Origin: Bacteroidota bacterium
GTDB taxonomy: Bacteria; Bacteroidota; Ignavibacteria; UBA10030
NCBI GenBank assembly: GCA_041695085.1
Contig: JBGFRO010000023.1
Coordinates: forward strand, 70,559-134,558
Direction: 5' to 3'
DNA length: 64,000 nucleotides
Of this stretch, positions 5,234 through 48,000 are shown one piece after another (the first letter of the stretch is position 1; the number at the start of each line of letters is the position of its first letter). The notes under the pieces are model-generated. The model did no database searches. It saw only the letters and a list, made by a program, of their open reading frames with translations, and was not told the DNA's origin. Both the position numbers and the translations under genes were made by a program.

Positions 5234-5239
5234 CTCCGG

Positions 5240-18860: not shown

Positions 18861-18876
18861 TGGCACGCCGGTTGTG
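18861..18876 (+). promoter_or_regulatory. Candidate sigma-54 (-24/-12) promoter upstream of the first pilin-like gene
   Basis: TGGCACG-ccgg-TTGT at 18861-18875 against the consensus TGGCACG-N4-TTGC (one mismatch in the -12 GC). It lies about 65 bp upstream of the 18941 ATG, and a sigma-54 activator is encoded divergently next door. A similar weaker element, TGGCATG-N4-TTGA, is at 25220-25234 upstream of subunit 5. Confidence 0.3.
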
Positions 18877-18940
18877 GAACCTATGGCAGACGAAATTGAA
18901 ACTCAACCAAACAAACAATACAATCATCTTGGAGGATGTC

Positions 18941-19441: not shown

Positions 19442-19514
19442 CGACAGATGCTTCTCCGTTCCGTGGCAGGCCCTACGGCCTCCCACGGATCGGTGTCTGA
19501 AAAGGGCTACGATC

Positions 19515-20024: not shown

Positions 20025-20177
20025 GGCAGGAGGGTTCTCTTGCTCTGTCCTCCAAGGACGACCAGCGCGAGTGAAGGTGGGAAGCATTCCACCTTCCTCC
20101 GCTTGAATCTCAGAGCGAGACGAGATATATTGGGTCAACTTTCTTCAACCAGTTCGGCGTATGTTCTTTTTGAGACG

Positions 20178-27417: not shown

Positions 27418-30400
27418 GTGGCCCGATTTCTTGACATAGTGCCCCTGTTTACGCGCATCGCAGCCGTGCGACGAGTGCTTCTTGTTCTGTTAGCGCTCGC
27501 CGGCATCAGCCTGCTCGCGCATGCCGATTCGTACCAAAGTCGGCAAACCGGCGTGTGGAGCGCGAAGACGACATGGGTGACCACGACGAACCTGAGTGGT
27601 ACGATCACCGTCTCGACCGCCACTCCCACGGTGACCGGGAGTGGTACGGCCTTTTTGACTGAGTATCAGGTCGGTGATCTTGTCATTCGCAATAACGCTG
27701 CGTTCACGGTTATCGGTACAATCGCAAGCATCGAAAGCAACACTCAGCTTACGCTGACGGCAAATTCTTCGATCAGCGCAAGTGGCATCACATATCGCCG
27801 CGGTCGTGTGCCCGGATCGGCTGACGATGTCACCGTCACCGGCACCAATGTCACCGTCACGCTCGATGCGAATGTCGCTGTGAACAGCCTCTCCGTGACG
27901 CATTTGGGCGGAAACAACACAACAACGACCTTCGATGTCAGCTCTCTCACCCTCAATGTGACCGGCAATGTGTCGGTGGCAGGCGGGTCCGGGAATAGAT
28001 TCGGTCGGCTCCAGGTGGGTGGCGGCGCGCTGACAATCGGGGGAAATTTGAGTATTGCGAATGCGAACGCCACGTTTGATCTCGGAGCAGGTTCCAATAG
28101 CACCCTCAACATTGCCGGATCGATGACGAATAGCGGGACATTCACGCCCGGCACCTCCAGCACCGTCAATTTCAACGGTACTTCCGCACAGACACTTCCC
28201 ATCACTGGCTTTACGTATGCAAACATTCGGCTGAATAACGCCGCCGGAGTAACCTTAGGTGGGGCAATTACGGCGACGAACGTAACCGGCGATATCCGCG
28301 TTCAGTCTGGCATTTTCAGCAACAACGGCAATGGCATCGCTGGCAACGCAGCAAAAACATTCGAGGTTGCCAATGGAGCAATATTCCAAGTAACGGGAAC
28401 CAGCGCCTTCCCATCGAATTTCACAGTCTCGCTCGGAAGCTCGAGCAACGTTGAATACACCGGAACAACGCAAACGGTTTCAGCGCAAACGTACGGAAAC
28501 CTCCTGCTGAGCGGAAGCGGGACAAAGTCATCAACAGCTTCGGTGACCGTCGTCGGTACGTTGACACAGTCAAGCTCCGGCACCTTCAGTTTGGGCGCGA
28601 GTCTCACCGTAAACAAGGTCAACATTACTGCCGGAACGCTTCAAGATAACGGAAATACGATCACCGTTACTGGCACCGGTGCCAATACCTGGGTGATGTC
28701 AGGAACATTTACGACGTCGGGCACCACCATCTTCACCGGCTCTGCGCCGGAGATCGGCAGCTCTAACTTTGCGACACTTCAGATCGACATTGGTGCCGCT
28801 AATACGGCGATTGCTACTGGCGCCTTATCGATGACCAACTTCACGCTGACGAGCGGAACGTTCAATCCGGGAGCGTTCAGCCACACGATCAGCACGAATT
28901 TCACACTGGCGACCGGCACGCGGTTGCTGGTGACACAAACAACCTTTGGCGGCAACTACAGCAAGAATCCGACAACGGTGAGTGGCGGAAGCACGGTCGA
29001 GTATCAAGCCACAGGCTCCACCATTGCAAACTTCACTTATTCCAATCTCACAATCAGTGGCACGGTGACAGGCGCTTCTACAGCGACGGTCGGTGGAGTT
29101 TTCAACGTTACCGGCTCCTTCACCCCATCGGGCGGTACGATCACCTTCACGGATGGTGCGTCGATCACGAATTCCGGTACCGCCACATTCTCCAGTCTGA
29201 CGATCGATAACGGCGCCACGGTGACAACCTCCAGCTCCTTCGGTGTACTTGGGACCCTTTCGGTTGGAACAGGAGGAAACTTTACCCCCTCCGGATCCAG
29301 TACCGTAACGGTCAACGGCGGAACGATTACCAACGCTGGAACGCTCTCTTTCCAAAACCTCACCCTTTCCGCTACCGTCACAGCGAACACGAGCTACGCT
29401 GTCAATGGTGCATTGAGCGTAAGCGGGACGCTCAATGCGACTGTCGGTACGGTGACACTCGGCAACCTCTCCACCTTCACCATCACAAGCGGCAGCGTCT
29501 CCTTCTTTGGTCTGGCGATCTCAGGATCGACGACGGCAAATCAGTCGTACGAAGTGAAAGGTGCGTTGACCGTGACAGTCTCCGGCGTTCTGAATCCGAC
29601 AAGCGGAACGGTAACGGTCAACGGCGGCTCCATCTCTAACAGTGGCACTCTCTCGTTCCAGAACTTGACGACAGCCGGCACGGTGACGATGAATACGAGC
29701 TTCACGGTGAAAGGTTCCTTTACCAATAATGGAACTATCAATCAAACGAGCGGCGTGCTAACGATGAGTGGCGGCTCGTCCATCGGCGGAACCGGCGGCC
29801 TGACGCTGCACAGTCTGACGATCGCAGGTGCAACGACGGGGACGGGAAATTTCACCGTCAACAACGTTTTGACCCTGAATGCAAACCTGGCGATGGGGAG
29901 CAACGTTTTGACGATGGGACCGAGCGCAACGACGAGCGGACTGTTCGATGTGACGGGAAGTGTGCAGCGTACGTCATTCGCGCTCGCGACCGAGTACACG
30001 TTCGGAAGCGCTTATACGACGCTTCAGTTTGCCTCAGCCACAACGCTCCCCACCTCCGTCATCGTCAACACGACTGTCGGAAGCGCCCCTTCAGGCAAAT
30101 CGGATGCGATCAATCGGTATTATCAGATCACCGAAACAGGCGGAACAGGCTACAGCGCAACCTTACGGCTCCGCTACAAAACCGGAGAATTGAACGGCAA
30201 TACCGAGACAACGCTCGAACTGTGGCGTGATATCGGTTCCGGCTATGCCAACTTCGGTCGAAGCGACATCAATACGTCCGATAAATGGGTCCAACGCACA
30301 AACATCTCTGCCCTCAACGCGGGATGGACGCTGGCCAACAAACCGACATTTCTGTTTACAGCGGGGAATAGTGGTGACTGGAACAATCCTGCGACGTGGG

Positions 30401-33400
30401 GCCAGACGGGGACGCCAACGGAGGGAGTCAATTATCCTGGTCCGGTCGACAGCGTCACCATTTCGGATAACTTCACGGTTACTCTGACAGCAAATCATTC
30501 AGCGCTGGCGGTGACAATCCAGGCATCGAATGCCGCTGGGACGACGTTGTTGGATGTCGATACGTACAATCTCGTAATCGGTGCAGGAGGTCTCAGCATA
30601 GTGGGTGGCGATGCTGATACAAAGATCGCCCGCGTGCGAGTTGCAGGCGGAACACTCAGTGTCACGGGACCGATTACGCTCACCGCCTCCTCCGCACCAC
30701 GCGCCGTGCTCGACATCAGCTCCGGTGTCTCAACGCTGAATGTCGGCGGCGCACTCACGAAGAGCGGAACGGCAACCTTCTCCGCCGGTACATCGAGCAG
30801 CGTGAACTTCAATGGCACATCTCCCCAGACCATTGATGTGGCCAACTTCTCGTTTGCGAACGTTCGCGTCAACAACACGCATGCAAATGGAGCCGCGCTC
30901 AATGCGGCGGTGACGACATCCAACCTCTCCGGCAACTTGCGCGTGCTTTCGGGGACCCTCAGCAACGGCGGGTTTGCCATCACAGGCGATCCACTCAAGA
31001 CGTTCGAGGTAGCAAACGGTGTCACGTTTATCCTGACAGGCACGAGCTCCTTCCCAACAGGATTCGGTACGAAGACGCTTGGAGCGACGAGCACAGTCCG
31101 TTATGAAGGAACGACTCAAACAATCGCTCAAGAGTCGTACGGCAATCTGGTGATCGGCGGAAGTGGTGCGAAGTCGGTCAATTCCGCACTCACCATTTCG
31201 GGTACACTGACACATCTCGCCAGCACCACAACGCTTTCCGGTACGTCCGGCGATGATCTTGTCGTCGGAAAGGTCGTGCTCACCGGCGGCACGCTTGTCG
31301 ATAACGGCCGCACGATCATGGTTACGGGTACCGGCGCCGGCACGTGGGATAAGAGTGGTGGGGCCACCTTCACGAGCACAGGTATTACAGTCTTCACAGG
31401 CGCAGCCCCTCAAATTGGCGCCTCGAACTTCTCCACACTTCAAATCAACGTCGGCAGCGGGAATACGGCAACCGCAACCGGGGCGTTAACGCCCGCCAAC
31501 TTCACGCTGACCAGCGGAACGTTCGATCCCGGAGCATACACTCACACGATCTCGACTGATCTGACGCTCAACAGCGGTTCGCGCTTGCTTGTGAAAACAA
31601 CAACCTACGGCGCGAACTACAGCCGAATCCCCGACACGATCCTGAGCGGTAGCACGATCGAGTACACAGCGACCGGCTCGACGGTTGAGACCATCAACTA
31701 CTACAATTTGACGATCAGTGGGACGGTGACCGGCTCTTCAACTGCAAGTGTCGACGGCGTCTTCACTGTTTCCAACTCCTTTGAGCCTTCCGGTGGAACG
31801 ATCACGCTGAACAACGGTGCTTCTCTTGTGAATTCCGGAACGCTGACGTTCAGCAATTTGACCATTGCCAATGCGGCGACGGCCACAACATCCAGCTCGT
31901 TCAGCGTCGGAGGTACCATGTCGGTCGGAACCGGCGCGACGTTTGCTCCGGGCGGAACGGTAACGCTCAACGGTGGTGCGACACTCTCCAACGCGGGCTC
32001 CCTCGTCTTCCAAAACCTGACTCTCGGCGGTGCAGTCACTGCGAACACGAGCTACACGGTGAACGGTACACTTGCCGGCGGGGGAACACTCGATGCCACA
32101 AGCGGAACCGTCACACTCGGTTCCGGCGCGACTATTTCGACGAGCGGTTCCGTGTCGTTCTTCAACCTCACTGTCAACGGCCCTGTGACGGCAAATGCGA
32201 GCTACACTGTCAAGGGAACGCTCACGGTTGGCGCAAGTGGAAATCTCAATCCCACAAGCGGAACCGTGACGTTGACAAATGGCTCCTCTGCGACGAACAG
32301 CGGCGTGCTCTCTTTCTTCAATCTCACTATCTCAGGCACCGTCTCGCTCAATACGAGCTTTACGCTTAAGGGGACCTTGACGAACTCCGGTACGGTCAAC
32401 CAGACCTCCGGCACGCTGACGACGCAGACCGGAGCTGTGATCAGCAATACAGGGACGCTGGAGTTGAATAACCTGACCGTTAGCGGTGCGACAACGGGTT
32501 CAAACAACTTCACCGTGAACGGCACGCTCACGCTCAATGCAACGCTGGCGATGGGAAGCAACATCCTCACGATGGGAAGTAGCAGCGCCACCGCCGGGAC
32601 GGGAGATGTGACGGGAACAGTAAGGAGAACGAGCTTCACCATCGGAACTCCTTACACGTTTGGCAATCAATTCACCTCCATCAACTACACCTCAGCCTCG
32701 GCGTTACCGACCTCTGTGGATGTCGCGATCACGATTGGCTCAGCTCCTCCGGAGAAGAGTGACGCCATTCTCCGGACCTACGCCATCACGCAGAGTGGCG
32801 GGTCTTCGACTGTCGCGACGCTTCGTTTGCATTACCTCGACAGTGAGTTGAACGCGAACGACGAATCGTCCCTCAACCTCTGGCTCAAGAGCGGATCGGT
32901 GTATGTCGATACTGGTTCGACGGCTTTTGACATCACCGACAATTGGGTCGAGCGGTCGGGTTTGACGGCGCTTACAACATCCTGGACGTTGGCCAACTTT
33001 GCGCCGACGGGATTCATTGCTGTGGCGAGTGGGAACTGGAACGCACCAGCCACGTGGGGCTTAAGTGGCACACCGCAGGAGGGAGTGAACTATCCCGGTC
33101 CGAACGACATCGCCAACATCAACGGCAATTTCACGGTCACCGTAACGACGAATCAATCCGTACGGAAGATTGTGATGCAACCGACCGGCACGCCCAAGAC
33201 GGCCCGGGTGAATATCAATGAAGGTCTAACGATGACCGTCGGCACGGGCGGCATTGTGATGACGAGTAATCTGAATGGTCGCGTGGCCCAGATCAACGGC
33301 CCCAGCGTCACGCTCAACGTCAACGGAAGTATTTCGATGAGTGCCGGAAGCACGTCGGATGCCGTCATCAACCTCACGGGCGGCAGCGGCGTCAGCACCA

Positions 33401-36400
33401 TGAATCTGAAGGGGAGTATCTCAAGGACCGACGCAACTTCCGGTACGATCACCTTCAGCAGCAGCGGCATCCTGAACATGAACGGTACCGGCGGACAGAC
33501 GTTGGATGTGCGAAGCTGCACGTTTGGGAATATCCATCTCAACAACACGAGCAGCTCCGGCGTTGAATTACTCGGAGCGATCACCACCACAAACGTCCTC
33601 GGTAATCTCCTGGTACAATCCGGCATCTTTAACAACAGCGGCTATGCCATCGCCGGTAATACGGGCAAGACCTTCCAACTTGGCGCGGGCACAACGTTTA
33701 TTCTCGGCGGTACGAGCAGCTTCCCCACGGGCTTCACCACCTCGATCGATCCAACGAGCACGGTGAACTATTCCGGCGGAGCCCAATCCGTTTCCGATCG
33801 TGCCTACGGCAATCTGATCCTTGGTGGCACGGGCTCCAAAACAATCACCTCATCGATCAGCGTCGCGAACAACTTCACCTATTCTTCGTCTGCGACAACG
33901 TCTCTCTCCGCTACGTCGGGACACAATCTCACAACGAAAACGTTCACGTTGACGGGTGGTACGTTCAATGACAATGGCCGCACGATCACCGTAACGGGAA
34001 CGAATACGCAGGTCTGGAACAAATCGGGGGGTACCTTCAATGCGACGGGAACGGTCAACATCACCGGTGCCGGGGCACAAATTGGCGCCTCGAACTTTGG
34101 GTCGTTGAATATCAACGTGGGCATCGGCAATACGGCGACCGCGCTCGGTGCGCTCACAATGTCCGAATTCACGCTCACCACGGGCACCTTCGATCCCGGT
34201 ACGGCGCTCCACACGATTAGCTCGACCTTCACGATTGGTGACGGGACAACGCTTCTCGTGAGAAACTCCTCCTTCGGCGCCAATTACAGCTCGAATCCCA
34301 CAACGCAATCCGGCAGCACGGTCGATTATATGAACGCGACGGCCTCCATTAGCAATGCCTTCACATACAGAAATTTGAAGGTCTCGGGAAGCGTCACCGG
34401 TGGGACCAACGCGACCGTGAACGAAAAGTTTACCGTGACCGGCACCTTCACGCCGTCAAGTGGAAAGATGATTTTCAATAACGGGGCAGAGATCATCAAC
34501 AACGGCGCACTCACCTTCCGCAAGTTGCAGATCACCAACGGTGCAACGGTCACCTCCTTGAGCAACTTCAGTATCAACGACTCGCTCATCGTTGGACAGA
34601 ATGCGGTCTTCCAGCCCACCGGCACCATCTCATTTGTCACGGGGGGTGCAATCGACGTCAACCCGACCGTGTTGAACGAAGGCATCTTGACCTTCAACAA
34701 CTTGAATGTCTCCGCTCCCGTGAGCACCAGTTCCTCGTTCTCGGTCTCCGGCACAATGAACGTTCAGGCCAACGGAGAGATCAATCCGAGCGCCGGTAAG
34801 ATTGTCTTTACAGGTGGATCGAGTATCGTCAACTCGTCGGTGCTCTCGTTCTACAGAGTGGAGCTCACCGGTCCCGTGACGGCCAATACGAACTTCTCGG
34901 TGAAGGATTCGCTCATCATCGGACCTTCCGGATCCCTCAACCAGACTTCGGGTAGCGTCACTCTGGAGAATGGCGCGAAAGTTCGAAACAATGGAAACTT
35001 AATCTTCAACTCGTTAAGTGTTACCGGCACCGTCACGGTAGACCAGAGCTATTCAGTCACGTCGTCGCTCAATGTCGGTTCGGGCGGCAACCTGACGGCA
35101 ACGGTAGGGACCGTCTCGTTCAGCGGGGGTGCCTCCATTTCGAACACCGGAACGCTCAGCCTGAATAACGTAACGATTGGTTCCGGAACAGCCACGGCCA
35201 ATCAAGGTTTCGCGATCGCTGGAACGCTTACGCTGAACGGCGACCTCGCGATGGGAACGAACATACTCGATCTCGGAACAACGGCCACCATCACCGGTCT
35301 CGGCGATGTCACAGGGTACGTGAGAAGAGCGGGCACGTTCTCCCTCTCCACTTCGTATACGTTCGGGAGTCAGTTTACCTCCATCACGTTCGCTTCCGGC
35401 ACGCCTCCCACGTCGATCACGGTGAATGTCGTGAAAGGATCTGCTCCGGTCGAGAAACCGGAGGCTATCTTGCGCTATAATGACATTTCAGCATCCGGTG
35501 GTGGAACGTATACCGCCACGCTCCGCCTCCGTTTCCTGACCGGTGAGCTGAACGGGAATGATCCCTCCACGCTTTCGCTCTGGAGGAAAGTGGGTGTCTC
35601 ACCCTACGCCGACTCCGGCAGAAGTGCGAACGACCTCGTGAATAATTGGGTCGAAAAGTCCGGCCTGGATGGCATCACCGGAATCTGGACGTTGAGTCGG
35701 CAGAATCCAGGCGGCTTCATTGCCGTACAGACAGGAAGCTGGAACAATCCCGCAACGTGGGGCCTGAGTGGTACGCCCACAGAGGGTATCAACTATCCGG
35801 GTCCTTCCGACATCGCGAACATCATCAACAATGTCACAGTGACCCTCACGGCCAACCAGTCCGCGTTGCGTGTAAATGTTGAAGGTCCGACATCTGATGG
35901 CACAGCGTTGCTGGAAGTGGGTGCGTACACGCTTACCATCGGCACGGGGGGACTCCGTTTGACGGGGGGTACGTCCGACAGTCGCATTGCCAAAGTTACT
36001 GTCGCCGGCGGCACGATAAGCGTGAATGGGGATGTCATCTTCAATACGTCGTCGGCTGTGAGGTCTCAGCTCGATCTCAGTCTCGGTTCGAATAGCGTTC
36101 TCGCTCTGACCGGCGCGATGACGAAGAATACGGCGGGAACCTTCGTGCCGGGAACAACGGGTGTCGTCAACTTCACCAGCACAACGGGTGGTCAAACACT
36201 CAACGTCTCTGCCTTTACGTTCTCCAATATTCGGGTGAACAACACGGGAGGCGGCCTCGCTCCCGATGCCGCGATCACGACTTCGAACGTGACGGGTGAC
36301 ATCCGGGTGCAATCGGGAGCCTTCAACAACGGAGGATTTGCGATCGCGGGGAATACCGGTAAGACGCTTGAAGTCGCAAACGGCGCCACCTTTAACCTCA

Positions 36401-39400
36401 CCGGTACCAGCTCCTTCCCAACCGGATTCACAATTTCGCTCGGAACAACGAGTACAGTGAATTATGCGGGAACCGGTCAGACGATTTCGAACCAATCTTA
36501 CGGAAATTTGACTCTCAGTGGTTCAGGTGGGCATTCCATCTCCACAGCGTTGAACGTCGCCGGTACCTTTACGTATTCCAGCTCCGGCACAACCTCTCTT
36601 TCCTCTACGGCGGGACATGATCTTACCACCAACAAGTTCCTCCAGACTGCGGGAACGTTTTCCGATGCAGGCAGGACGATCATCGTCACCGGCAGTGGAT
36701 CCTCAACTTGGTCCAAAACGGGCGGAACGTTCAACGCAACAGGGATCGTTCGTTTCACCGGCTCCGCTCCGCAGATAGGAGCATCGAACTTTGCGACGCT
36801 CGAGATCGACGTTACAGGCGGTAATACGGCGAGCGCAATAGGCTCGCTTACACCAACCCACCTCGTTCTGACCTCAGGCACGTTCGATCCCGGCTCCTCT
36901 CTTCACACCATTGCGACCAACTTCACACTGGCCTCGGGCTCGACGTTGAAGGTGAATACCTCCACCTTCGCCGGAAATTATTCGAAGTCTCCGACCACCG
37001 TCAGTTCAAACTCGACAGTCGATTACACCAGTTCGACTGCCACGCTCTCGAATGCTTTCACCTACGCGAATTTGCGGGTAAGCGGAACGGTCACAGGCTC
37101 CTCATCGCCCGCCGTGGGAGGTGCGTTTACGGTGACCGGTACGTTCAACAACCCGGGCGGAACGGTCACGTTGAACAACGGCGCTTCCATCGTGGTCTCG
37201 GGCGGAACGTTAAACTTCAGCAACCTCACTGTGGCGGCCGGCGATACTGCTACGTCGGCTTCCAGCTTTGGTGTGTACGGCGCCCTCAGTGTCGGAACAG
37301 GCGCGACCTTCACTCCCTCCGGTACGGTGACCATGTTCGGTGGATCGAGTATCAGCAATTCCGGCTCATTGACGTTCGGGACACTCTTCGTGGCTGGTAC
37401 GATCACGGCCAACACCTCCTACAGCGTCTCACAGTCACTCAGTATCGGTCTTGCCGGCGATCTGACGGCGACCTCCGGCACTGTGACGATGACGGGGACC
37501 TCGACCATCAGCAATCTCAACGCCCTGCAACTTTACACCGTCGTCTTCAGCGGCACAACGACGAGCTCCTCGAACTTCTCTGTTGCTCAATCTCTGAGTG
37601 TTGGAGCATCCGGAAGCTTCACCGCATCGGGCGGCACCGTTACGATGAACGGCGGTTCCTCCATCGCCAACTCGAACTCACTCACCTTCTATAACGTGAC
37701 GACGGGATCCGGCACGATTACGTCGTCTTCAGACTTCAACGTAGCGGGGACACTCACTGTCGGCGCAGGCTCCACGTTCAATCCGACCGGCACGATTACG
37801 ATGAACGCCGGCTCGGCAATAACAATTTCCGGCTCCTCGTCGTTCAACCATCTCACGATCGCAGGAGGGACGGTCACCGGCAATACGAACATCACCGTGA
37901 GCGGTACTCTGACCCTCAACGGTACTTTTGCAATGGGCTCCAATATCCTCGATCTCGGTGTGTCGACCCCCTTGATTGCTGGAACGGGGGATGTGACGGG
38001 CAACGTGCGACGGCAAGGTACGTTCGTGACGGGAACGGCATATTCATTCGGCAATCGATTTACTTCGATCAACTTTGCGAGCGGGTCGCTGACCGGCTCG
38101 GTCACGTTCAACATCTCCATCGGTTCGGCTCCCGCAGAAAAGCTTGACGCGATTCTCCGTAAGTATGCTGTGACGGAATCCGGCATCTCCGGATACTCGG
38201 CGACCGTTCGCTTGCATTATCTCGACAGTGAGTTGAATGGTAACACTGCATCGGCGATGACGCTCTGGTACAAATCCGGCTCATCATACATCAATCAGGG
38301 CCGCACAGGGTCGGTTGATGAGACCGATAAGTGGGTTGAGAAAAACTCCATTACAGCTTTGGTAGGAGACTGGACTTTAGCGAATCAGCCTGCGGTCGGT
38401 TTCACGACCGTCGCAACGGGGAATTGGAATGATCCCGCCACGTGGGGTCTAACAGGCACACCGACAGAAGGGGTCAACTATCCCGGCCCGACAGACATTG
38501 CCAACGTAACGGGTGGGTTTACCGTCACCATCAGTGCCACTCACTCTGTGTTGACGTTGAATGTCACAGGGAACACGAACGGTCCCGCAGTCTTGAGTGT
38601 CGGGGCTCAATCACTTACAGTGAACGGAAACATGACACTCACCGGCGGCAATACGAACGCCCGGTATGCACGCGTGAACGTTGCTGGTGGTACGCTAACG
38701 GTAAAAGGTAACATCACCTTCTCGACGGGCACGGCGGTTCGTGCCGTGCTCGACCTGAGCGGCGCTGCGAATAGCGTCTTAAACATCGGCGGGACGATGT
38801 CCAAGAATACACAAGGTACTTTCACTCCGGGCACATCGAGCATCACCAACTACAACGGCACGTCGGCACAAACGATCAACGTCACGAACTTCACATATGC
38901 TCACCTGCATACGAACAACACGAGCGGCAGCGGCGCCTCGCTTGGCGCTGCCATTACAGCGACCAATGTCACCGGCAATCTCCGGGTCCAGTCCGGCATC
39001 TTCTCGAATGCCGGTTTCGGCGTTACCGGTGGAGCCGGCGATACGATTGAAGTTTCCTCCAATGCCAAACTGCAGCTCACTGGCACAACTGGCTTCCCGA
39101 CGGGATTCAGCACGACGACGCTCGCCTCCACGAGCACCGTGGAATATCTGGGAACGACGCAATCCGTTGCAAACCTTCCCTACGGAAATCTGACCCTGGG
39201 CGGCACCGGCAGCAAGACGATCGCATCGGCACTTTCCGTTACCGGAACGTTCACCTATTCCAGCTCCGCTTCCACAAGTCTGTCAGGTACTGCGGGACAC
39301 GATCTGACCACCGGCAAGTTCGTCCTCAGCAACGGAACGTTTGTGGATAATGGCAGGACGATCCTCGTTACAGGTACCGGCAGTGGAGTCTGGAACAAGT

Positions 39401-41325
39401 CGGGCGGCGCATTTACGGCAACGGGCATTGTGCGATTCACTGGTGCAGCTCCGGAGATCAGCGCATCGAACTTCGGTACGCTCGAACTCAATGTCGGTGC
39501 ATCGGGCACCGCGATTGCCACGGGCATCCACACGTCGGACAATCTCAACCTTGTGACCGGTACATTTGATCCGGGTGTGTACGGACACACCATCGCCAAC
39601 AACTTCACCCTTGCAAACGGCACGCGCATCCTTGTCCGTGGTGCGGAGTTCGTCACCAATTACAGCAAGATCCCAACGTCCATTGGAACGGCAGGGGTTG
39701 TAGAGTATGTCAGCAGTGATGCACAAACTGTCAATCAAACGATCACCTACGCCAATCTTAAATTAACGGGGAGTGGAGCAAAGAGTGCAGGTGGGGCATT
39801 GACTGTGACCGATTCGCTCATCATCTCCAACGGATCAACCCTCAGCGGCGTCTCCTACAATCACCAGATATCCGGACAGTGGGTGAACAACGGCACCTAC
39901 ACCGCAAGTACCGGCACGGTTACCTTCACGGGCACAGCCGCACAGACCATCGGCGGGAGCAGCCAGACGACGTTCAACAACCTTGCAATGAACAAGTCGG
40001 GCGGATCTCTTACGCTCAATCTCAATACTATCGTCAACGGCACGTTGACGTTGACCTCCGGAAACGTGACGACCGGATCGTTCAAGCTTACGATGGGTCC
40101 CAGTGCAACGGTCAGCAGGACGAGCGGACATATCGTGGGCAATTTCGAAAAACATATCGCTGCCGGACCGACCAGCAAGACATTTGAGATTGGCGACGCC
40201 TCCAATTATACGCCGGTGACGGTCGCGTTCGCAAACGTGACGGCCGCCGGGTATCTCACTGCCCGCACCGATGCAGGAGATCATCCTGACATCCTCAACT
40301 CGCCTGTGCTCGATACGGAGAGCATCAACCGACACTGGACGGTAACGAATTCCGGCATCTCCTTCACCAGCTACAGTGCGACGTTCGTGTTTGTAGCAGG
40401 GGACCTCGATCCTGCCGTCAACACGAGCGAGATGATTATGGCGAAGTATGACGCGGGTGTCTGGAGCGAGCCGACCGTCGTCAATCGTACGCCCACCAGT
40501 ATTGAGATTTCAGGTATGACGTCGTTCAGCCAGTTCCAGGGAGGTAATCCCTCACGGGCCGATTTCACGTCGGTCACCACCGGTAATTGGAATTCTGCTT
40601 CCACGTGGGATCGAAATCGCGTGCCGAAGAAGAATGACAACGTGACGATCAGCGCCTCGCACGTGGTGACGCTGACGGATAATCGGGAGATCACCAACGT
40701 GACGGTCAACGCCAACGGCGAGTTTGCTCACAACAGCGGCACGACGTTATCGGTCTACGGCGATTTTGTCCTGAACGGAACGTGGAGCGGCAGCGGAACA
40801 ATGAGCTGGAAGAACGACGGGAACTCGATCACCGGAAGTGGCACGACAAGCGGCACGCCGGTGCTGCAGGCGGAGGGGAACAAGGACATTCTCGCTTCCG
40901 CCTCGCTGACGCTCTTCCGCATCCACATCTTCTCAGGCAAGACAGTGACGAACAACGGCACGATGACTCTGACGAGATTAACGGGGATCGATGGGACGTC
41001 GACATGGACGAATGCGACGAATTCAAACCTCACCGTTCTGCAGGATTTGTTGACAACCGGAACGCTCACGGCGACGGCTTCGGGGAACACGGTGACGTAC
41101 GGCGGCAACTCGGCACAGACGGTGAAGTTGACAACCTATCATCATTTGGCCTTTAGCGGTTCGGGTACAAAGACGATTGGCGGTTCAATGAGTGTGCAAG
41201 GGAATCTTATTGTGAACACCGGTTCACCGCTGTTGGTGAATGCGAGCGGCAATCTGCAGGTGAACGGTGATTTTGAGAATGGTGGATTTGTCACGAACGA
41301 TGGAATCATCAATGTTGGAAATTAA
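27418..41325 (+). CDS. Giant (about 4600 aa) secreted repetitive beta-helix-like surface protein / putative adhesin
   Basis: Uninterrupted 13.9 kb ORF. A likely signal peptide MRRVLLVLLALAGISLLAHA starts at GTG 27466 (the longest ORF starts at GTG 27418). Composition is dominated by T/S/G/N/V with 30-50-aa beta-strand repeats (GTVTLNNGASxxNSGTLSFxNLTIxG). There are four full and one degenerate ~895-aa super-repeats, each starting with the NWNxPATWG..GTPTEGVNYPGP block. No recognisable T9SS C-terminal domain. Confidence 0.8.
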   Translation: MARFLDIVPLFTRIAAVRRVLLVLLALAGISLLAHADSYQSRQTGVWSAKTTWVTTTNLSGTITVSTATPTVTGSGTAFLTEYQVGDLVIRNNAAFTVIGTIASIESNTQLTLTANSSISASGITYRRGRVPGSADDVTVTGTNVTVTLDANVAVNSLSVTHLGGNNTTTTFDVSSLTLNVTGNVSVAGGSGNRFGRLQVGGGALTIGGNLSIANANATFDLGAGSNSTLNIAGSMTNSGTFTPGTSSTVNFNGTSAQTLPITGFTYANIRLNNAAGVTLGGAITATNVTGDIRVQSGIFSNNGNGIAGNAAKTFEVANGAIFQVTGTSAFPSNFTVSLGSSSNVEYTGTTQTVSAQTYGNLLLSGSGTKSSTASVTVVGTLTQSSSGTFSLGASLTVNKVNITAGTLQDNGNTITVTGTGANTWVMSGTFTTSGTTIFTGSAPEIGSSNFATLQIDIGAANTAIATGALSMTNFTLTSGTFNPGAFSHTISTNFTLATGTRLLVTQTTFGGNYSKNPTTVSGGSTVEYQATGSTIANFTYSNLTISGTVTGASTATVGGVFNVTGSFTPSGGTITFTDGASITNSGTATFSSLTIDNGATVTTSSSFGVLGTLSVGTGGNFTPSGSSTVTVNGGTITNAGTLSFQNLTLSATVTANTSYAVNGALSVSGTLNATVGTVTLGNLSTFTITSGSVSFFGLAISGSTTANQSYEVKGALTVTVSGVLNPTSGTVTVNGGSISNSGTLSFQNLTTAGTVTMNTSFTVKGSFTNNGTINQTSGVLTMSGGSSIGGTGGLTLHSLTIAGATTGTGNFTVNNVLTLNANLAMGSNVLTMGPSATTSGLFDVTGSVQRTSFALATEYTFGSAYTTLQFASATTLPTSVIVNTTVGSAPSGKSDAINRYYQITETGGTGYSATLRLRYKTGELNGNTETTLELWRDIGSGYANFGRSDINTSDKWVQRTNISALNAGWTLANKPTFLFTAGNSGDWNNPATWGQTGTPTEGVNYPGPVDSVTISDNFTVTLTANHSALAVTIQASNAAGTTLLDVDTYNLVIGAGGLSIVGGDADTKIARVRVAGGTLSVTGPITLTASSAPRAVLDISSGVSTLNVGGALTKSGTATFSAGTSSSVNFNGTSPQTIDVANFSFANVRVNNTHANGAALNAAVTTSNLSGNLRVLSGTLSNGGFAITGDPLKTFEVANGVTFILTGTSSFPTGFGTKTLGATSTVRYEGTTQTIAQESYGNLVIGGSGAKSVNSALTISGTLTHLASTTTLSGTSGDDLVVGKVVLTGGTLVDNGRTIMVTGTGAGTWDKSGGATFTSTGITVFTGAAPQIGASNFSTLQINVGSGNTATATGALTPANFTLTSGTFDPGAYTHTISTDLTLNSGSRLLVKTTTYGANYSRIPDTILSGSTIEYTATGSTVETINYYNLTISGTVTGSSTASVDGVFTVSNSFEPSGGTITLNNGASLVNSGTLTFSNLTIANAATATTSSSFSVGGTMSVGTGATFAPGGTVTLNGGATLSNAGSLVFQNLTLGGAVTANTSYTVNGTLAGGGTLDATSGTVTLGSGATISTSGSVSFFNLTVNGPVTANASYTVKGTLTVGASGNLNPTSGTVTLTNGSSATNSGVLSFFNLTISGTVSLNTSFTLKGTLTNSGTVNQTSGTLTTQTGAVISNTGTLELNNLTVSGATTGSNNFTVNGTLTLNATLAMGSNILTMGSSSATAGTGDVTGTVRRTSFTIGTPYTFGNQFTSINYTSASALPTSVDVAITIGSAPPEKSDAILRTYAITQSGGSSTVATLRLHYLDSELNANDESSLNLWLKSGSVYVDTGSTAFDITDNWVERSGLTALTTSWTLANFAPTGFIAVASGNWNAPATWGLSGTPQEGVNYPGPNDIANINGNFTVTVTTNQSVRKIVMQPTGTPKTARVNINEGLTMTVGTGGIVMTSNLNGRVAQINGPSVTLNVNGSISMSAGSTSDAVINLTGGSGVSTMNLKGSISRTDATSGTITFSSSGILNMNGTGGQTLDVRSCTFGNIHLNNTSSSGVELLGAITTTNVLGNLLVQSGIFNNSGYAIAGNTGKTFQLGAGTTFILGGTSSFPTGFTTSIDPTSTVNYSGGAQSVSDRAYGNLILGGTGSKTITSSISVANNFTYSSSATTSLSATSGHNLTTKTFTLTGGTFNDNGRTITVTGTNTQVWNKSGGTFNATGTVNITGAGAQIGASNFGSLNINVGIGNTATALGALTMSEFTLTTGTFDPGTALHTISSTFTIGDGTTLLVRNSSFGANYSSNPTTQSGSTVDYMNATASISNAFTYRNLKVSGSVTGGTNATVNEKFTVTGTFTPSSGKMIFNNGAEIINNGALTFRKLQITNGATVTSLSNFSINDSLIVGQNAVFQPTGTISFVTGGAIDVNPTVLNEGILTFNNLNVSAPVSTSSSFSVSGTMNVQANGEINPSAGKIVFTGGSSIVNSSVLSFYRVELTGPVTANTNFSVKDSLIIGPSGSLNQTSGSVTLENGAKVRNNGNLIFNSLSVTGTVTVDQSYSVTSSLNVGSGGNLTATVGTVSFSGGASISNTGTLSLNNVTIGSGTATANQGFAIAGTLTLNGDLAMGTNILDLGTTATITGLGDVTGYVRRAGTFSLSTSYTFGSQFTSITFASGTPPTSITVNVVKGSAPVEKPEAILRYNDISASGGGTYTATLRLRFLTGELNGNDPSTLSLWRKVGVSPYADSGRSANDLVNNWVEKSGLDGITGIWTLSRQNPGGFIAVQTGSWNNPATWGLSGTPTEGINYPGPSDIANIINNVTVTLTANQSALRVNVEGPTSDGTALLEVGAYTLTIGTGGLRLTGGTSDSRIAKVTVAGGTISVNGDVIFNTSSAVRSQLDLSLGSNSVLALTGAMTKNTAGTFVPGTTGVVNFTSTTGGQTLNVSAFTFSNIRVNNTGGGLAPDAAITTSNVTGDIRVQSGAFNNGGFAIAGNTGKTLEVANGATFNLTGTSSFPTGFTISLGTTSTVNYAGTGQTISNQSYGNLTLSGSGGHSISTALNVAGTFTYSSSGTTSLSSTAGHDLTTNKFLQTAGTFSDAGRTIIVTGSGSSTWSKTGGTFNATGIVRFTGSAPQIGASNFATLEIDVTGGNTASAIGSLTPTHLVLTSGTFDPGSSLHTIATNFTLASGSTLKVNTSTFAGNYSKSPTTVSSNSTVDYTSSTATLSNAFTYANLRVSGTVTGSSSPAVGGAFTVTGTFNNPGGTVTLNNGASIVVSGGTLNFSNLTVAAGDTATSASSFGVYGALSVGTGATFTPSGTVTMFGGSSISNSGSLTFGTLFVAGTITANTSYSVSQSLSIGLAGDLTATSGTVTMTGTSTISNLNALQLYTVVFSGTTTSSSNFSVAQSLSVGASGSFTASGGTVTMNGGSSIANSNSLTFYNVTTGSGTITSSSDFNVAGTLTVGAGSTFNPTGTITMNAGSAITISGSSSFNHLTIAGGTVTGNTNITVSGTLTLNGTFAMGSNILDLGVSTPLIAGTGDVTGNVRRQGTFVTGTAYSFGNRFTSINFASGSLTGSVTFNISIGSAPAEKLDAILRKYAVTESGISGYSATVRLHYLDSELNGNTASAMTLWYKSGSSYINQGRTGSVDETDKWVEKNSITALVGDWTLANQPAVGFTTVATGNWNDPATWGLTGTPTEGVNYPGPTDIANVTGGFTVTISATHSVLTLNVTGNTNGPAVLSVGAQSLTVNGNMTLTGGNTNARYARVNVAGGTLTVKGNITFSTGTAVRAVLDLSGAANSVLNIGGTMSKNTQGTFTPGTSSITNYNGTSAQTINVTNFTYAHLHTNNTSGSGASLGAAITATNVTGNLRVQSGIFSNAGFGVTGGAGDTIEVSSNAKLQLTGTTGFPTGFSTTTLASTSTVEYLGTTQSVANLPYGNLTLGGTGSKTIASALSVTGTFTYSSSASTSLSGTAGHDLTTGKFVLSNGTFVDNGRTILVTGTGSGVWNKSGGAFTATGIVRFTGAAPEISASNFGTLELNVGASGTAIATGIHTSDNLNLVTGTFDPGVYGHTIANNFTLANGTRILVRGAEFVTNYSKIPTSIGTAGVVEYVSSDAQTVNQTITYANLKLTGSGAKSAGGALTVTDSLIISNGSTLSGVSYNHQISGQWVNNGTYTASTGTVTFTGTAAQTIGGSSQTTFNNLAMNKSGGSLTLNLNTIVNGTLTLTSGNVTTGSFKLTMGPSATVSRTSGHIVGNFEKHIAAGPTSKTFEIGDASNYTPVTVAFANVTAAGYLTARTDAGDHPDILNSPVLDTESINRHWTVTNSGISFTSYSATFVFVAGDLDPAVNTSEMIMAKYDAGVWSEPTVVNRTPTSIEISGMTSFSQFQGGNPSRADFTSVTTGNWNSASTWDRNRVPKKNDNVTISASHVVTLTDNREITNVTVNANGEFAHNSGTTLSVYGDFVLNGTWSGSGTMSWKNDGNSITGSGTTSGTPVLQAEGNKDILASASLTLFRIHIFSGKTVTNNGTMTLTRLTGIDGTSTWTNATNSNLTVLQDLLTTGTLTATASGNTVTYGGNSAQTVKLTTYHHLAFSGSGTKTIGGSMSVQGNLIVNTGSPLLVNASGNLQVNGDFENGGFVTNDGIINVGN

Positions 41326-41853: not shown

Positions 41854-41924
41854 CTACATCTTGCACAACCTCGTTCGGGTTCCTGACGTGAGCACTCAGG
41901 TTTCCCGGCCACGGCAGTCCACGC

Positions 41925-41994
41925 TTCACCATTTACAGTTCACGATTCACGGTTTACGGTTCACTGTTTACCGTTCACAGTTCACTCTTCACAA
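41925..41994. repeat. Ten tandem imperfect heptamer repeats TTYACNN
   Basis: ttcacca tttacag ttcacga ttcacgg tttacgg ttcactg tttaccg ttcacag ttcactc ttcacaa are contiguous. The array sits about 130 bp upstream of the 42124 start codon. Confidence 0.85.
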
Positions 41995-42123
41995 TCAAAC
42001 AAAGGAGCAGTAGTCATGAAAACGCAACACGCAGTACCTGATGGTGACCGGAAGGTCAATCGACAAAGCAACACAAACAACAATCAACATATCAATAAAC
42101 CAATTTCAAAAAGGAGCAAAGTC

Positions 42124-43533
42124 ATGAACGCAGTCAAATTCTTCCGCGCGGGGCTGTTGGCCCTGCTTACACTCGTCTTTGGCATCGAATCGATGTACAG
42201 CCAAGGCGTTCTTAAGAATGGCGGGGTGTTCAGAAATACTGGGAACTCCACGTTCAAAGAGATCCAGAACTACAAGGGTACGAGCAATGGGACGATAGTG
42301 AACAGCGGTACGCTTTCCACTACCACTGCTGCGGGAGGATCGGGTAAGTTCAGGAATACGGATGGATCGGCCCGGGCTGGTACGGTCAGAAACTACATCG
42401 GCGGTATTGGGAACGGCACCGCCGTTGTTGCTGACTCGCTGTTTACCAACTTCACGGGTGCAACATTCGATAATGACAGCTCGGCCGGCCTGTCAACTCT
42501 TCGTATCGCGGGTGGGTTACTTACCACCGGAGGAACGTTCGATACGGATAGTGGTCGCGTGTGGTACAATGGTGGTACTCAAACGATCGTGGCGACCACC
42601 TATGGGGTGCTTGTGACCGATAACAGCGGTACGAAGACATTGGCAGATAGCATTGTGGTGAGGGATTCGTTGAGAATCGATAATGGCTCGACGCTTGCGG
42701 TAAGCACATTTCGTATGAACCTGTTAGGAGCAACCAACGTCGCACAGAACACGGGTACGCTGAGTGCGGGCTCGGGTACCGTTCGTTACGCGGGCGATCT
42801 GAATCAGTCGATCATCCCGACGCAATACAAGGTTCTGACGCTCACGGGCTCAACTGGGGCAAGAACAAAGACCTCTGCCGGTGGCCTTTCGTTTGCGTCA
42901 AGTGGACAGTTGACGGTTGACACGAACGATACACTCTTCGTCTCCTCGGGTAATCTCGACCTGAGCACCAATAGTCCCACGCTGATCAACAGTTCAGCGA
43001 TCAAGTTGGCCGGCGATGCGACGTTCCATGGCGGCATCTCCAACGCGGGTAACTTCTACTACGCTGGTACAAGCGCCCAAGCAATCGGTGGAACCACGTA
43101 TGCAAATCTGCGCCTCGGAGGTAGCGGTGGGAAGAACTTCCCGTCAACCACCGTCGCCGTTACGGGTAACTACTCCATCGATGCCGGTACGGGCACGCGC
43201 AATTACAGCACGGGCACCTTCCAATTTGCTGGAACGAGTACTCAGACCATCTCCGGTCTTTCCGAGACCTTCTATATTCTCCAGTTTGCAGGTTCCGGTG
43301 CAAAGAATCTTTCCGGTACTTCAATGGGTGCCGCGCGACTGGATATTCTCGGAACAAGCGGTGTTGTCACGAACGACGTGACTACTGTAACCCTGACAAA
43401 CGTCTCCAACATAAGCTTAACGATCGCTTCTGGACGTGAACTCGTGAACAACGCAGGAAAGACGATCACCATGAATGGCGATCTCGAGAACGATGGTATC
43501 ATCACGAACGCTGGAACGATTAGCGTGAACTAA
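42124..43533 (+). CDS. Secreted beta-helix-like repeat protein, short paralog of the giant protein's repeat unit
   Basis: AAGGAG RBS; MNAVKFFRAGLLALLTLVFGIESMYSQG signal peptide. The same S/T/G/N-rich repeat style as the giant protein. The C-terminus NGDLENDGIITNAGTISVN* mirrors the giant protein's end NGDFENGGFVTNDGIINVGN*. The longest ORF starts at 42016, but that extension is polar and lacks signal-peptide character. Confidence 0.7.
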   Translation: MNAVKFFRAGLLALLTLVFGIESMYSQGVLKNGGVFRNTGNSTFKEIQNYKGTSNGTIVNSGTLSTTTAAGGSGKFRNTDGSARAGTVRNYIGGIGNGTAVVADSLFTNFTGATFDNDSSAGLSTLRIAGGLLTTGGTFDTDSGRVWYNGGTQTIVATTYGVLVTDNSGTKTLADSIVVRDSLRIDNGSTLAVSTFRMNLLGATNVAQNTGTLSAGSGTVRYAGDLNQSIIPTQYKVLTLTGSTGARTKTSAGGLSFASSGQLTVDTNDTLFVSSGNLDLSTNSPTLINSSAIKLAGDATFHGGISNAGNFYYAGTSAQAIGGTTYANLRLGGSGGKNFPSTTVAVTGNYSIDAGTGTRNYSTGTFQFAGTSTQTISGLSETFYILQFAGSGAKNLSGTSMGAARLDILGTSGVVTNDVTTVTLTNVSNISLTIASGRELVNNAGKTITMNGDLENDGIITNAGTISVN

Positions 43534-44338: not shown

Positions 44339-44939
44339 GGAGTATTCTACCCATGCGATCAGATTCATATCAGATTTTGTGATGACACACAGATCACACG
44401 TCGGACAATGTCGTAAGCGGATCAGGCGTCGGTTTACTGCTTCGAGGCATCATGTTCCGCGACCGTTGTCATTGTTTGTTTTTCCTTCTGGCGAAGCGCG
44501 AGCGGTTGGAGTTTTTCCCGTTGATGCGGGACCCATGTGGGGCTCCTTCTCCATTGCTCGGCGCAGCGTGCAGGGAAGGCGTATGCCGCGGAGTGCACTC
44601 GCGGCGGGACGCGTGTGGCGTTATCACATATGTCGTTGCGTTTTCGTGTTTCATCTACTTCTCCGTGATGATCGGCAGGCGGCATGTTGCACCTTTCCGC
44701 GGGCTCGATCACAACCGGGAAAGTTCCTGCTCAGTTCTTTCCCGATGACTGAAGGGGAGTGCCATGAGTGTTGATCGACATAAGTTGAGAGACACGGAAC
44801 TCCTCCAACCGGTGGCAGAGAGAGAAGGTGAGTTCGCTCCTTCTCGCCTTCTCTCCACCATCGTTTCGCGAGCAGAGTGGTTCAGAGGAGGTTACAAGTT
44901 CTTACTGAAACAGATTCACAGATTGGAGAAGAAGATTTG

Positions 44940-45093: not shown

Positions 45094-48000
45094 TTGATGC
45101 GGAAGAAGGATAGTATTCAATTGAGGGTTGTTCGCGCCGGCGTTGACAATGGTCAACTTCAGCGCAAGAGACTCTCCACTTTTTCTTTCCCGTCCGAAAG
45201 GAAGTTGGAGTGGAACGATTTAATCAAACCAAAGGGTAGTCCTATGGTTGAACGAACGGTACAAAAACTCGGAAGGCGACTCGATCGCTGGCGGCGGAGC
45301 AGATCGCCGCTGAAGATCGCGTTCCTTTTATTCTTGATGCTGATCTCCATTGTCAGTTCCGCCGCGGCGGCGGGTGGGGATCTCAAGAACACCGGGGCGA
45401 TCAACAACACCGGCACCATCAAGGTACGCAACCGGGCTATGGGGTTGCCGATGATCAATAGCGGTGTGTTTGAGTTCTTCGGCGCGGATCAACCAATCCC
45501 CGGCCGAAGGTTTGCCGACCTGCGTTTAATAGGAAGCGGGACGAAGACTGTCACAGGCGGCAACGTTTCCGTTTTCGGGACGATGACCGTTGGAAGCAAT
45601 GTCACCGTTGATGCTTCCTCCACGAATATCGTTCAACTCAATGGAACGCTGGACGAACAAGGATATGTGCTCGGGACAATGGAGAAGACTCTGACGCTTA
45701 CCGGTTCGTCAGGTTCCTCTCCGTTTGGTAATATCGGTGCAACCATTTCGTGGTCCGGCACGGCACCCGGCACGACGACGATCTCTCGCGTGACCGGCGT
45801 TGTTTCGACCTCGACGGAAACGGGTTTCACATCCAGCCAATCGATCAAACGTTACTACGATATCGCGCCGACGTTTGGCACAGGACTGAATGGGACATTA
45901 GTCTTCGGTTATCGCGACAGCGAATTAAACGGCCAGAATGAATCGACACTTTCCCTCTGGCGCTCTCCCGATGGTGGGTTGACGTGGCGCAAGCAGGGCG
46001 GCACGGTGGATGTCACGGCCAACACGATTACAAAGTCGGGTATCCTGAATTTTAGCCGATGGACGGCGTCGGATGCCGCGAATCCGTTGGGCCCAAATTT
46101 CATCGAAGGGGTCGCGCAAAATATGGTCCTGACATCAGGGAACAATCAATCGGGTCCCATCAGCACGCCGTTGGCCCATCCCTTCATTGTCACGGTGCGC
46201 GACTACTACGGCAACCCGATCGCCGGTGTCAGCGTCGAGTTCTCGATTGGTTCGGTTCCATCTGGTGCCTCTGGCCAGTCACTCAGCGCTACGTCGGTAT
46301 TGACTGGTGCGAATGGTCAAGCCTCGACTATATTAACGCTCGGAAACCTCGCCGGCACTTACACGGTCATTGCAAGCTCCGGTTCGCTTGTGGGGAGTCC
46401 GCTCACATTTAGCGCCATGGCTTTGGGTGCACCTCCACCACCGCCGCCCGGACCTGTTGCCACCGCGATGGTGCTGGCGAGTGGTCAGAATCAAGTCGAT
46501 ACGGTTGGGAGGACGCTTGAGAGCGCTTTTGTGGTCCGTGTGCTCGATCAGAACGGTCAGCCGTTCGTAGGCGCGACGGTGCGGTTCATCCTGTCGGCAG
46601 CTCCGACAGGAGCAATCGGTCAGCGTCTCTCCGCGGACTCGATGGTCACCAACAGTTCCGGACTTGCATTCACGCGACTCACGCTCGGTTCGAGGGTGGG
46701 ATCGTACACGGTTCAGGCAACATTAGGCACGTTGTCGCCGATCAACTTCCATGCAACGGCTGTTGCGGGAGCTCCGAAGTTCCTGACGCAGGTCTCAGGC
46801 AACAATCAGATTGGCCAGATTCGTGCGCCGCTCCCTCAGCCGTTTGTTGTGTCGATTACAGACACATTCGGCAATGCAAAGCAAGGAATCCAAGTTCGGT
46901 TCGCAATCAGTGGAGTGCCGACTGGTGCAGCGGGTCAGCGCCTGAGCGACTCGGTTGTGACAACGAACGCAGATGGTCTCGCACAGACGACATTGACGCT
47001 TGGCGACAGTGTGGGCACCTATACAGTTACAGCCACTTCCCCATCTCTGCCGGGCAGTTCGTTTACGTTTGTGGCGAACGCGATCCGCACCGCTCCGCGA
47101 GAGATCGCTTTGCTTTCTGGCAACAATCAGCGGGGAATGGTTACGACGACGTTGGCGAATCCGTTGGTAGTGGTAGTGACAGATTCGGCAGGCGTGCCGG
47201 TATCAGGAGTGACGGTGTCGTTTGCGATCACGCAGGTGCCGCAGGGTGCCACGGGACAGGTGTTGAGCGTGGATCGAGTCAACACAGACGGTCAAGGACG
47301 TGCCTCCACGTCTCTGACTCTTGGCAACCGACCGGGCAGGTATGTGGTGCAGGCAAGTGCACCGGGTCTTGCAAACAGTCCGATCACATTCACTGCGACA
47401 GCCGATATTGGCCCTGCGGCGGTGCTGGTCTTTGTTTCGGGTGGTGGTCAGACCGGAGAGGTGTCGAGGCCGTTGGCCGAGCCGTTGCGCGTGCAAGTGA
47501 CCGATGTGGCGGGCAACGGAGTGCAGAACGTTCCCGTGACGTTTGCGGTGGACAGCATACCGAATGGAGCGACGGGAGCGTTTGTGAACGGAGCGACATC
47601 GACGGAGGTGCGGACAGATGGCAACGGATTTGCGAGCGTCTCGATGAGGTTGGGGAACAAGGTTGGAGTGTATCGAGTGGCGGCGAGTTCGACGGGATTG
47701 GCAAACAGTCCGATCTATTTCCGGCTGACGGCGACGCACGGAGCTGCTGTGGCCATGGCGTATGTGCGTGGCGACGGGCAGCGGCAGCGGATCAATACGG
47801 TGCTCGATTCACTCTTTGTGGTACGAATTACCGACGTCGGCGGCAATGCGGTGCCGGGTGTGGCGGTTGCGTTCACGTTGGACAGCATTCCGAGTGGATC
47901 GGTTGGGCACGCACTCACGGTTATCAACGGCGTAACGAACGCACAAGGTGAAGCGAGTGCGAGGTTGACGTTGGGCAGTAGAGCCGGACGGTATGTCGTC

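Follow-up and report, generated by a model that had tools for sequence, protein, structure and literature searches.

A giant predicted beta-helix protein without a sorting domain heads a conserved gene cassette with a type IX secretion cargo in an Ignavibacteria bacterium

A 64,000-nucleotide stretch of contig JBGFRO010000023.1 (GenBank assembly GCA_041695085.1, positions 70,559 to 134,558 of the forward strand; hereafter the window) carries gene A (27418..41325, + strand), a genuine gene of a bacterium of the class Ignavibacteria, which belongs to the Fibrobacteres-Chlorobi-Bacteroidetes (FCB) group of users of a secretion system known as type IX (T9SS). By gene order and the termini of the encoded proteins, A is the first gene of a conserved cassette A-B(n)-C, in which one to four copies of a gene B are followed by a gene C. 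The best explanation overall, to which we assign a probability of roughly one half, is that A forms the distal section of a surface fibre or adhesin that depends on the T9SS; the steps of export and assembly are inferred. FCB bacteria commonly have giant beta-helix surface proteins; what seems to be new is a multi-module A in which each module has its own beta-sandwich (D domain) and, especially, the ordered A-B(n)-C arrangement with matching termini and a single T9SS C-terminal domain (CTD). The cassette is widespread, its largest proteins lack a CTD and have a precisely conserved ending, and one CTD-bearing partner always follows. If the parts assemble, this raises the testable question of how CTD-less proteins get onto the surface of a T9SS bacterium.

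The cassette was defined such that A and B lack a CTD and end in NxGxhxNxGxIxV, mature B and C open with a similar motif, and C contains a D domain and a T9SS CTD; it is present in the window and at 16 further loci with sufficient sequence. When the search started from A-type ends, P0004 (JGI 3300062553), P0142 (ENA ERZ25039515), P0101 (GCA_049317705.1) and P0089 (GCA_964534125.1) were each found to have a gene of the B type downstream and one of the C type after it, with matching end and start motifs, while P0136 was left out of this judgement because its contig is too short. When it started from the conserved N-terminus of C (alignment A2), a metagenome scan returned 20 loci, 12 of them with enough upstream DNA. 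At all 12, C has a T9SS tail and is preceded by one to four open reading frames (ORFs) rich in Thr, Gly, Ser and Asn, which have no such tail and whose last residues before the stop codon read ...NxGxhxNxGxIxV(Q or G-N/P/E). Over all loci, the ending NxGxIxNxGxIxV was recognised by eye in 33/34 upstream A/B-type ORFs, the exception being a frameshift fragment, and a strict regular expression applied to the last 26 amino acids (aa) matched 22 of the 34, compared with 0.1% of internal 26-aa windows. A motif similar to this ending opens mature B and C right behind the signal peptide, and within the cassette the CTD is restricted to C. At the P0142 cassette (L087, 15491-18146) B is split into ORFs of 153, 530 and 129 aa, the last of which ends ...NAGTITVQ, so that this copy is either a frameshifted pseudogene or the product of a sequencing error.

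Two of the loci, L109 and L089, are syntenic with the window. In L109, whose flanks were compared by gene order only, the gene run is the same as in the window, namely EF-P, AccB, AccC, a PAS/GAF kinase, a GerE-type regulator, two single-domain response regulators, A, B and C. In L089 the correspondence lies in the genes downstream of C, and the DNA flanking its cassette matches the window at 63-75% identity. In both loci A is only 26-28% and B 31-35% identical to the counterpart in the window, and such divergence beside the well-matching flanks of L089 indicates that the cassette proteins evolve fast. The size of A varies as well, with about two modules in L109 versus five full ones and a truncated sixth in the window.

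Gene A begins with a GTG codon and is open over 4635 aa with zero internal stops; in the JGI gene call it begins at an internal GTG at 27475, which gives 4616 aa. An earlier note on this DNA, made from the sequence alone, had described a 13.9-kb gene for a secreted protein of about 4600 aa, and this description stands. The signal peptide, read by eye from the translation, covers aa 1-36 (27418..27525, +) and ends in ...LLALAGISLLAHA before DS, with a positive n-region, a hydrophobic core and an AxA cleavage site. A thus has the Sec signal peptide expected of T9SS cargo of any type (...VLLVLLALAGISLLAHA before DS, likewise by eye). The block NWNxPATWG(L/Q)xGTPxEG(V/I)NYPGPxD begins at nt 30379, 33037, 35740 and 38425 with spacings of 2658, 2703 and 2685, essentially as the note had it, and the degenerate copy that it placed at nt 40588 was found again. 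However, an additional degenerate copy of the Trp block (GVWSAKTTW, aa ~47) lies directly past the signal peptide, so that A is counted here as five full super-repeats (SR) and a truncated sixth, instead of the "about 4.5" proposed before. SR1 (aa 37-979, 27526..30354, +) has the degenerate Trp motif and an N-terminal insert of ~60 aa. SR2 (aa 980-1865, 30355..33012, +), SR3 (aa 1866-2766, 33013..35715, +) and SR4 (aa 2767-3661, 35716..38400, +) follow. SR5 (aa 3662-4382, 38401..40563, +) is short, since ~185 aa of internal 50-aa repeats are missing, and has a divergent D domain at about nt 39853-40422. SR6 (aa 4383-4635, 40564..41322, +) is truncated to 253 aa, in which a G8/Amnionless-like Trp motif is followed by helix only, without a D domain. 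A full super-repeat measures ~890 aa and has a 50-aa sub-period in part of its length. The protein is rich in Thr (17.5%), Gly (13.3%), Ser (12.2%) and Asn (8.7%), with sparse charged residues and a single Cys.

In the structural model, made for the SR2 module, each module consists of a Trp-rich motif (NWNxPATW in SR2), a right-handed parallel beta-helix of ~700 aa and a 165-aa beta-sandwich similar to ZU5 and GAIN-B. The helix has the stacked three-strand rungs of the pectate-lyase-like fold, and its closest folds are beta-helix adhesins. The super-repeats had previously been taken as beta-strand repeats throughout, which holds for the beta-helix bulk but overlooks the sandwich that closes each full one. 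This D domain spans 32518..33012 (+) in SR2, with equivalents in A at 29860-30354, 35218-35715 and 37900-38400 (+) and another in protein C at 45556-46089 (+). The residues GxGDVxG, R, Y, FG, RxY, Y and ELNGN are conserved over 189 D domains. The Trp block at the module starts follows the pattern W..(A/S)(T/S)W....P...D.V.I and in this resembles G8 and Amnionless. For the SR6 region the scores fall just below the cut-offs, with 22.5 bits against 22.9 for G8 (PF10162) and 26.5 against 30.4 for Amnionless, and the remaining five copies gave no G8 or Amnionless match.

GAIN and FIIND domains cut their own chain autoproteolytically, which brings up the alternative that A is a polyprotein, cleaved at its D domains into modules of ~890 aa that stay attached non-covalently. 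This is very unlikely. The His-hydrophobic-Ser/Thr cleavage motif of the GAIN/FIIND type is not conserved among the 189 D domains, nor is a pair of His and Ser/Thr/Cys conserved in them close to the last strands. Furthermore, ZU5 domains that do not cleave match the D domain with equal scores, and its identity to the ZU5, GAIN-B and FIIND structures matched is 7-11%. Compared with ZU5, GAIN subdomain B and FIIND, the D domain is bacterial and extracytoplasmic and lacks a cleavage motif of the GPS or FIIND type; as a ZU5/GAIN-B-like sandwich it would extend that fold to bacterial surface proteins.

The similarity between the super-repeats of A far exceeds chance, and they are old. SR1-SR5 share 41-57% protein identity (pairwise BLASTP, E-values down to 0.0) and 51-59% nucleotide identity, with a synonymous divergence (dS) of 1.7-4.1, which is saturated, and a nonsynonymous divergence (dN) of 0.40-0.62. 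In all pairwise comparisons dN lies below the saturated dS, and the copies are under constraint. In the repeat families of at least 83 nt (83-258 nt) every copy is at most 72% identical to its reference, and more similar matches reach only 25-43 nt in length. At such low identity a collapse or expansion during assembly is very unlikely, as a short-read assembler had nothing to collapse, so that the earlier proposal of an ancient duplication rather than an artefact is borne out. What could still speak for an assembly artefact, or for a decaying gene that has lost its CTD, is that only metagenome assemblies are available and that the neighbouring gene C holds a 980-bp tandem duplication at 99.4% identity, a type of repeat that assemblers get wrong. 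Two contigs, one of 559 kb from a JGI metagenome and one of 151 kb from NCBI, agree with this DNA at 100% identity over 33.8 kb, but these two probably stem from the same data and shared reads, and hence give no independent proof of the structure. Against both versions stand the open frame of 13.9 kb, the 51-59% DNA identity between repeats with none of 83 nt or more above 72%, dN well below the saturated dS, and the same CTD-less ending in 33/34 related ORFs from other assemblies. Like the polyprotein, an artefact or pseudogene is therefore unlikely, here to the point of being barely tenable.

No known export or anchoring signal was detected at the end of A. Pfam and NCBIfam scans of A gave no model at its cut-off. 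The type A CTD of the T9SS (TIGR04183/PF18962) was absent from A and B, both in the whole proteins and in the last 130 aa at E<=1-10, while C, serving as positive control, scored 27.7 bits for TIGR04183 against a cut-off of 23. The type B CTD (TIGR04131/PF13585 CHU_C) matched neither A nor B. A has the beta-helical passenger of a classical autotransporter (type Va secretion system, T5aSS), but its end consists of helix-type repeats and has no Pfam match to the 12-strand barrel PF03797. Two-partner secretion (TPS) does not apply either, as neither the N-terminal TPS domain of a TpsA protein (PF05860) nor a TpsB partner gene was found. For a giant adhesin of the repeats-in-toxin (RTX) type with type I secretion, no RTX model matched and a signal peptide is present. 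The C-terminus, which reads ...GFVTNDGIINVGN, contains no sortase signal, that is, no LPXTG followed by a hydrophobic stretch and a positive tail. A profile search against PDB sequences returned no matches. The earlier note had likewise seen no T9SS CTD, LPXTG or autotransporter barrel, and the scans agree with it; its assignment of the repeats to the PATR type, by contrast, could not be upheld, since PF12951 gives no match in A at E<=1, even though the G/T/N/S-rich beta-strand repeats of ~30-50 aa are alike. It also called the export route unclear, but it missed context that bears on this route, namely the A-B-C cassette with a type A CTD on its last member and the ending shared by A and B.

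By its fold, A would work like the rods of autotransporter passengers (Vag8, pertactin, TibA, Ag43) and of TPS adhesins (EtpA, HMW1). It differs from these in an identity of only 10-16%, in the lack of a C-terminal barrel and of an N-terminal TPS domain, in having five tandem helices each closed by a beta-sandwich, and in a host phylum that uses the T9SS. Since beta-helix adhesins commonly act alone and the closest folds are such adhesins, A might be a stand-alone adhesin or exoprotein, secreted or brought from the periplasm to the surface, whose motifs are structural end pieces; A, B and C would then be separate proteins under common regulation. This would also agree with P0148, an A-like protein whose ending is looser and which is followed by neither B nor C, and with the lack of any fusion of an A-type end to a C-type start among 220 family proteins. 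However, it leaves unexplained how a chain of 4635 aa passes the outer membrane in an organism in which other large surface proteins carry CTDs, as well as why very divergent genomes all keep the order A-B-C, in which it is invariably the last gene that has the CTD. A stand-alone A thus appears unlikely.

A closer relation exists to T9SS type A cargo, which includes giant surface proteins of the FCB group. Many relatives of the super-repeats carry PF18962, C is such cargo and the host group is the same, whereas A and B have no detectable CTD and end in a conserved rung-like motif instead. In A this motif belongs to a conserved C-terminal unit of ~75 aa (41098..41322, +; alignment of 10 C-termini), which ends ...LQVNGDFENGGFVTNDGIINVGN before the stop codon. 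The unit in A and B could itself be a new secretion or sorting signal, either a third T9SS type or one for another outer-membrane route, such that each protein is exported alone and the cassette reflects shared function or regulation. At 16 loci or more the ending and the position of the stop codon are conserved, scans of A and B detect none of the known sorting domains, and the T9SS-secreted ChiA of Flavobacterium provides an example of a C-terminal region unlike types A and B. Nevertheless, the unit looks like ordinary rungs, with Y-x-NL-x-L-x-GSG-x-K and an Asn/Gly rung that also occur once inside each super-repeat. It is not a separate Ig-like sandwich, unlike the known CTDs (PMC11285876), and a sorting signal would leave the matching start motif of mature B and C unexplained. 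We therefore regard a new sorting signal as doubtful.

The reading of A as the distal part of a T9SS-dependent fibre or adhesin would accommodate both the conserved ending and the matching starts. The T9SS would export C and fix it on the outer surface. A and B would reach the surface and be held there via C by an end-to-end association of beta-helix termini. The simplest model uses the fact that successive rungs of a beta-solenoid share a sequence pattern, which makes stackable ends conceivable, such that an A or B chain that stops after a rung motif could stack on a B or C chain that opens with one after cleavage. The Trp motif at the N-terminus of A would mark the distal end, and A, B and C together would form a long, fast-evolving fibre or adhesin, of which an extended A alone would account for roughly 70-100 nm, assuming ~23 aa and 4.8 Å per rung. 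In its most specific form, this would be a so far undescribed heteromeric fibre with an anchored C, on which one to four B and the giant A are stacked head-to-tail in fixed order via apparently uncapped solenoid ends; we consider this form possible rather than probable. A mechanistic model, without homology, may be seen in curli, where beta-solenoid units stack head-to-tail on an anchored nucleator (PMC10192328). Compared with CsgA and CsgB, at least three different proteins in fixed order would be involved here, instead of a homopolymer. Immediately upstream lie two single-domain response-regulator genes that overlap each other (26446..26991 and 26979..27383, +; Pfam Response_reg 88 and 91 bits), end 34 nt before gene A and have counterparts directly upstream of A in L109 (62% and 46% identity); their products probably control expression.

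Several points weigh against this fibre. T9SS cargo is stated to need a CTD (PMC11285876), and no report was found in the literature of CTD-less proteins exported together with a CTD-bearing partner. P0148 and the missing A-C fusions, named above, count here as well. The N-terminal Trp motif was modelled with low confidence, at a predicted local distance difference test score (pLDDT) of ~50-55, and its position is the reason for taking it as a cap. Finally, SR6, B and the start of C were considered as one split module, but the profile coordinates do not partition cleanly, and this idea was dropped as evidence. If the fibre is real, it would enable proteins without a CTD, as large as 4635 aa, to reach the surface or to stay on it, which would amount to a new principle of assembly and to T9SS-associated cargo of a new class. 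It would also mean that uncultured Ignavibacteria possess a modular, fast-evolving fibre, possibly for attachment to particles or to other cells.

The family to which the super-repeats belong is large but uncurated, with no Pfam or NCBIfam model and no studied member found in the literature. With E<1e-3 as threshold, a profile of the five super-repeats matched 4155 cluster representatives, and with E<1e-30 it matched 781; many of the 4155 are 2000-6191 aa long and have several matched stretches each. The best non-self match reaches 628 bits compared with 6380 for self, so that nothing is close beyond the own cluster of A. A G-x-W-N...T-W motif directly after the signal peptide is found in many relatives. 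Among 70 representatives whose termini were compared, most have T9SS-CTD-like tails and a minority end like A. In a set of 73 homologues, PF18962 is annotated in 17 and PF12951 in five. This set is apparently restricted to proteins of up to ~1.7 times the query length, which excludes giant A and full-length C proteins; the search of cluster representatives covered both. As to the host, AccC from the window is 84-88% identical to that of Ignavibacteriales/Ignavibacteria metagenome-assembled genomes in a large protein database. A placement in the Bacteroidota by AccC matches of 63-69% identity in the genome collection was misleading, the larger database pointing to Ignavibacteriales. Two genes neighbouring A have T9SS sorting tails and C passes the TIGR04183 cut-off, which indicates that the organism uses the T9SS.

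Gene B (42124..43533, +) encodes a beta-helix-like protein of 469 aa with a signal peptide and the mature N-terminus QGVLKNGGVFRNTGN, without a CTD or any Pfam match. It ends ...NGDLENDGIITNAGTISVN, also written ...MNGDLENDGIITNAGTISVN, before the stop codon. If translation began at an in-frame ATG upstream, at 42016, the product would have 505 aa. Indeed, 42016-42126 contains two in-frame starts for B, each with a Shine-Dalgarno sequence and an ATG, the upstream one of which opens an extension of 36 codons, MKTQHAVPDGDRKV...KRSKV. The start (MKTQ / MEAQ..AVP.GDR) and the end (KRS-K/N-V/I-M) of this extension recur in several other loci, and the conserved start could be a leader peptide or part of an extended signal peptide. 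The "KRSKVM" before the signal peptide was considered as a protein motif, but is best read as translated AAAGGAGCAAAGTCATG, that is, a ribosome-binding site (AAGGAG) and ATG. Directly upstream of the ribosome-binding site of B lies an imperfect heptad array (41915-41993), in which (G)TTCAC(N) occurs ~9 times. Units of 14 or 21 nt can be read in it as well, and it may serve to bind a regulator.

Gene C (45094..50313, +) probably starts at 45244, which gives 1689 aa, with the mature N-terminus GDLKNTGAINNTGTIKVRN from ~45376. The signal peptide is followed by a short helix stub, the D domain, ~10 Big_1 domains, a dockerin-like stretch and the T9SS type A CTD at about 50047-50301. Besides the TIGR04183 match, C reaches 209.7 bits for Pfam Big_1 in 10 stretches and 46 bits for FlgD_ig. 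Mature B and C begin with Gln, which fits the "Q-rule" of Bacteroidetes; this rule does not hold for the whole FCB group (PMC5837995). The 980-bp tandem duplication inside C (47090-48069/48065-49044; 99.4% identity, six mismatches) duplicates a Big_1 block and, unlike the repeats of A, is of the type whose copy number short-read assembly can misjudge. Further repeats lie downstream of C, namely a 15-nt unit in 3.1 copies (50322-50368) and a 44-nt unit in 2.5 copies with a CGACCCC-GTCA-GGGGTCG hairpin (50766-50876). Logan short-read contigs of the same organism break near these repeats, with L003 beginning at about window position 51580.

The spacer between B and C is long (1.2-3.3 kb) in 10 of 13 loci with a complete spacer, the others (L092, L104 and L088) having 0.3-0.9 kb. 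In the window it contains a GC-rich hairpin (44822..44853), GAGAAGGTGAG-loop-CTCGCCTTCTC, with a minimum free energy of about -30 kcal/mol for 44806-44870, which occurs once in the window against 0 expected by chance. A related hairpin lies in the B-C spacer of 9/25 loci, where the proteins are only 36-55% identical. No T-run follows the hairpin and it has no Rfam match; a role in processing or stability, or as a site for a regulator, is conceivable. The same spacer holds a 195-nt tandem repeat (43826-44267; 2.3 copies, 95% identity), in which the ORFs on both strands are repeat read-through.

Upstream of the response regulators, 18860-26177 (+) encodes six small secreted paralogues of 119-169 aa that are 25-38% identical to each other; the 119-aa one has no BLASTP match and was grouped by signal peptide and ending only. 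The paralogues have a signal peptide, a Gln around the likely cleavage site and a T-x-T-x-T terminal strand, e.g. ...TVTLTLTN. The cluster also includes a 270-aa Ig-like protein with weak fn3_5/WxLIP matches, and a 998-aa protein in which N-terminal Ig-like domains are combined with a middle part resembling a barrel, with CarboxypepD_reg domains and with a C-terminal tail; this protein has no relatives in the genome collection. Apart from CarboxypepD_reg in the latter, no Pfam or NCBIfam family scored above cut-off in this region. In its layout the cluster resembles an undescribed chaperone-usher-like pilus system, and it was considered as the exporter of A. Since it is absent from the syntenic L109, and from other cassettes, it is probably unrelated to A and not its exporter, or at least not required. 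Scans of the window with Rfam and for tRNAs found nothing, and those for sigma-70 promoters and terminators did not rise above the shuffled expectation. At 4001-6000 the GC content has a local peak of 0.617 compared with ~0.53 around it, where the AT skew is strong and both strands have ORFs that overlap (4009-5986).

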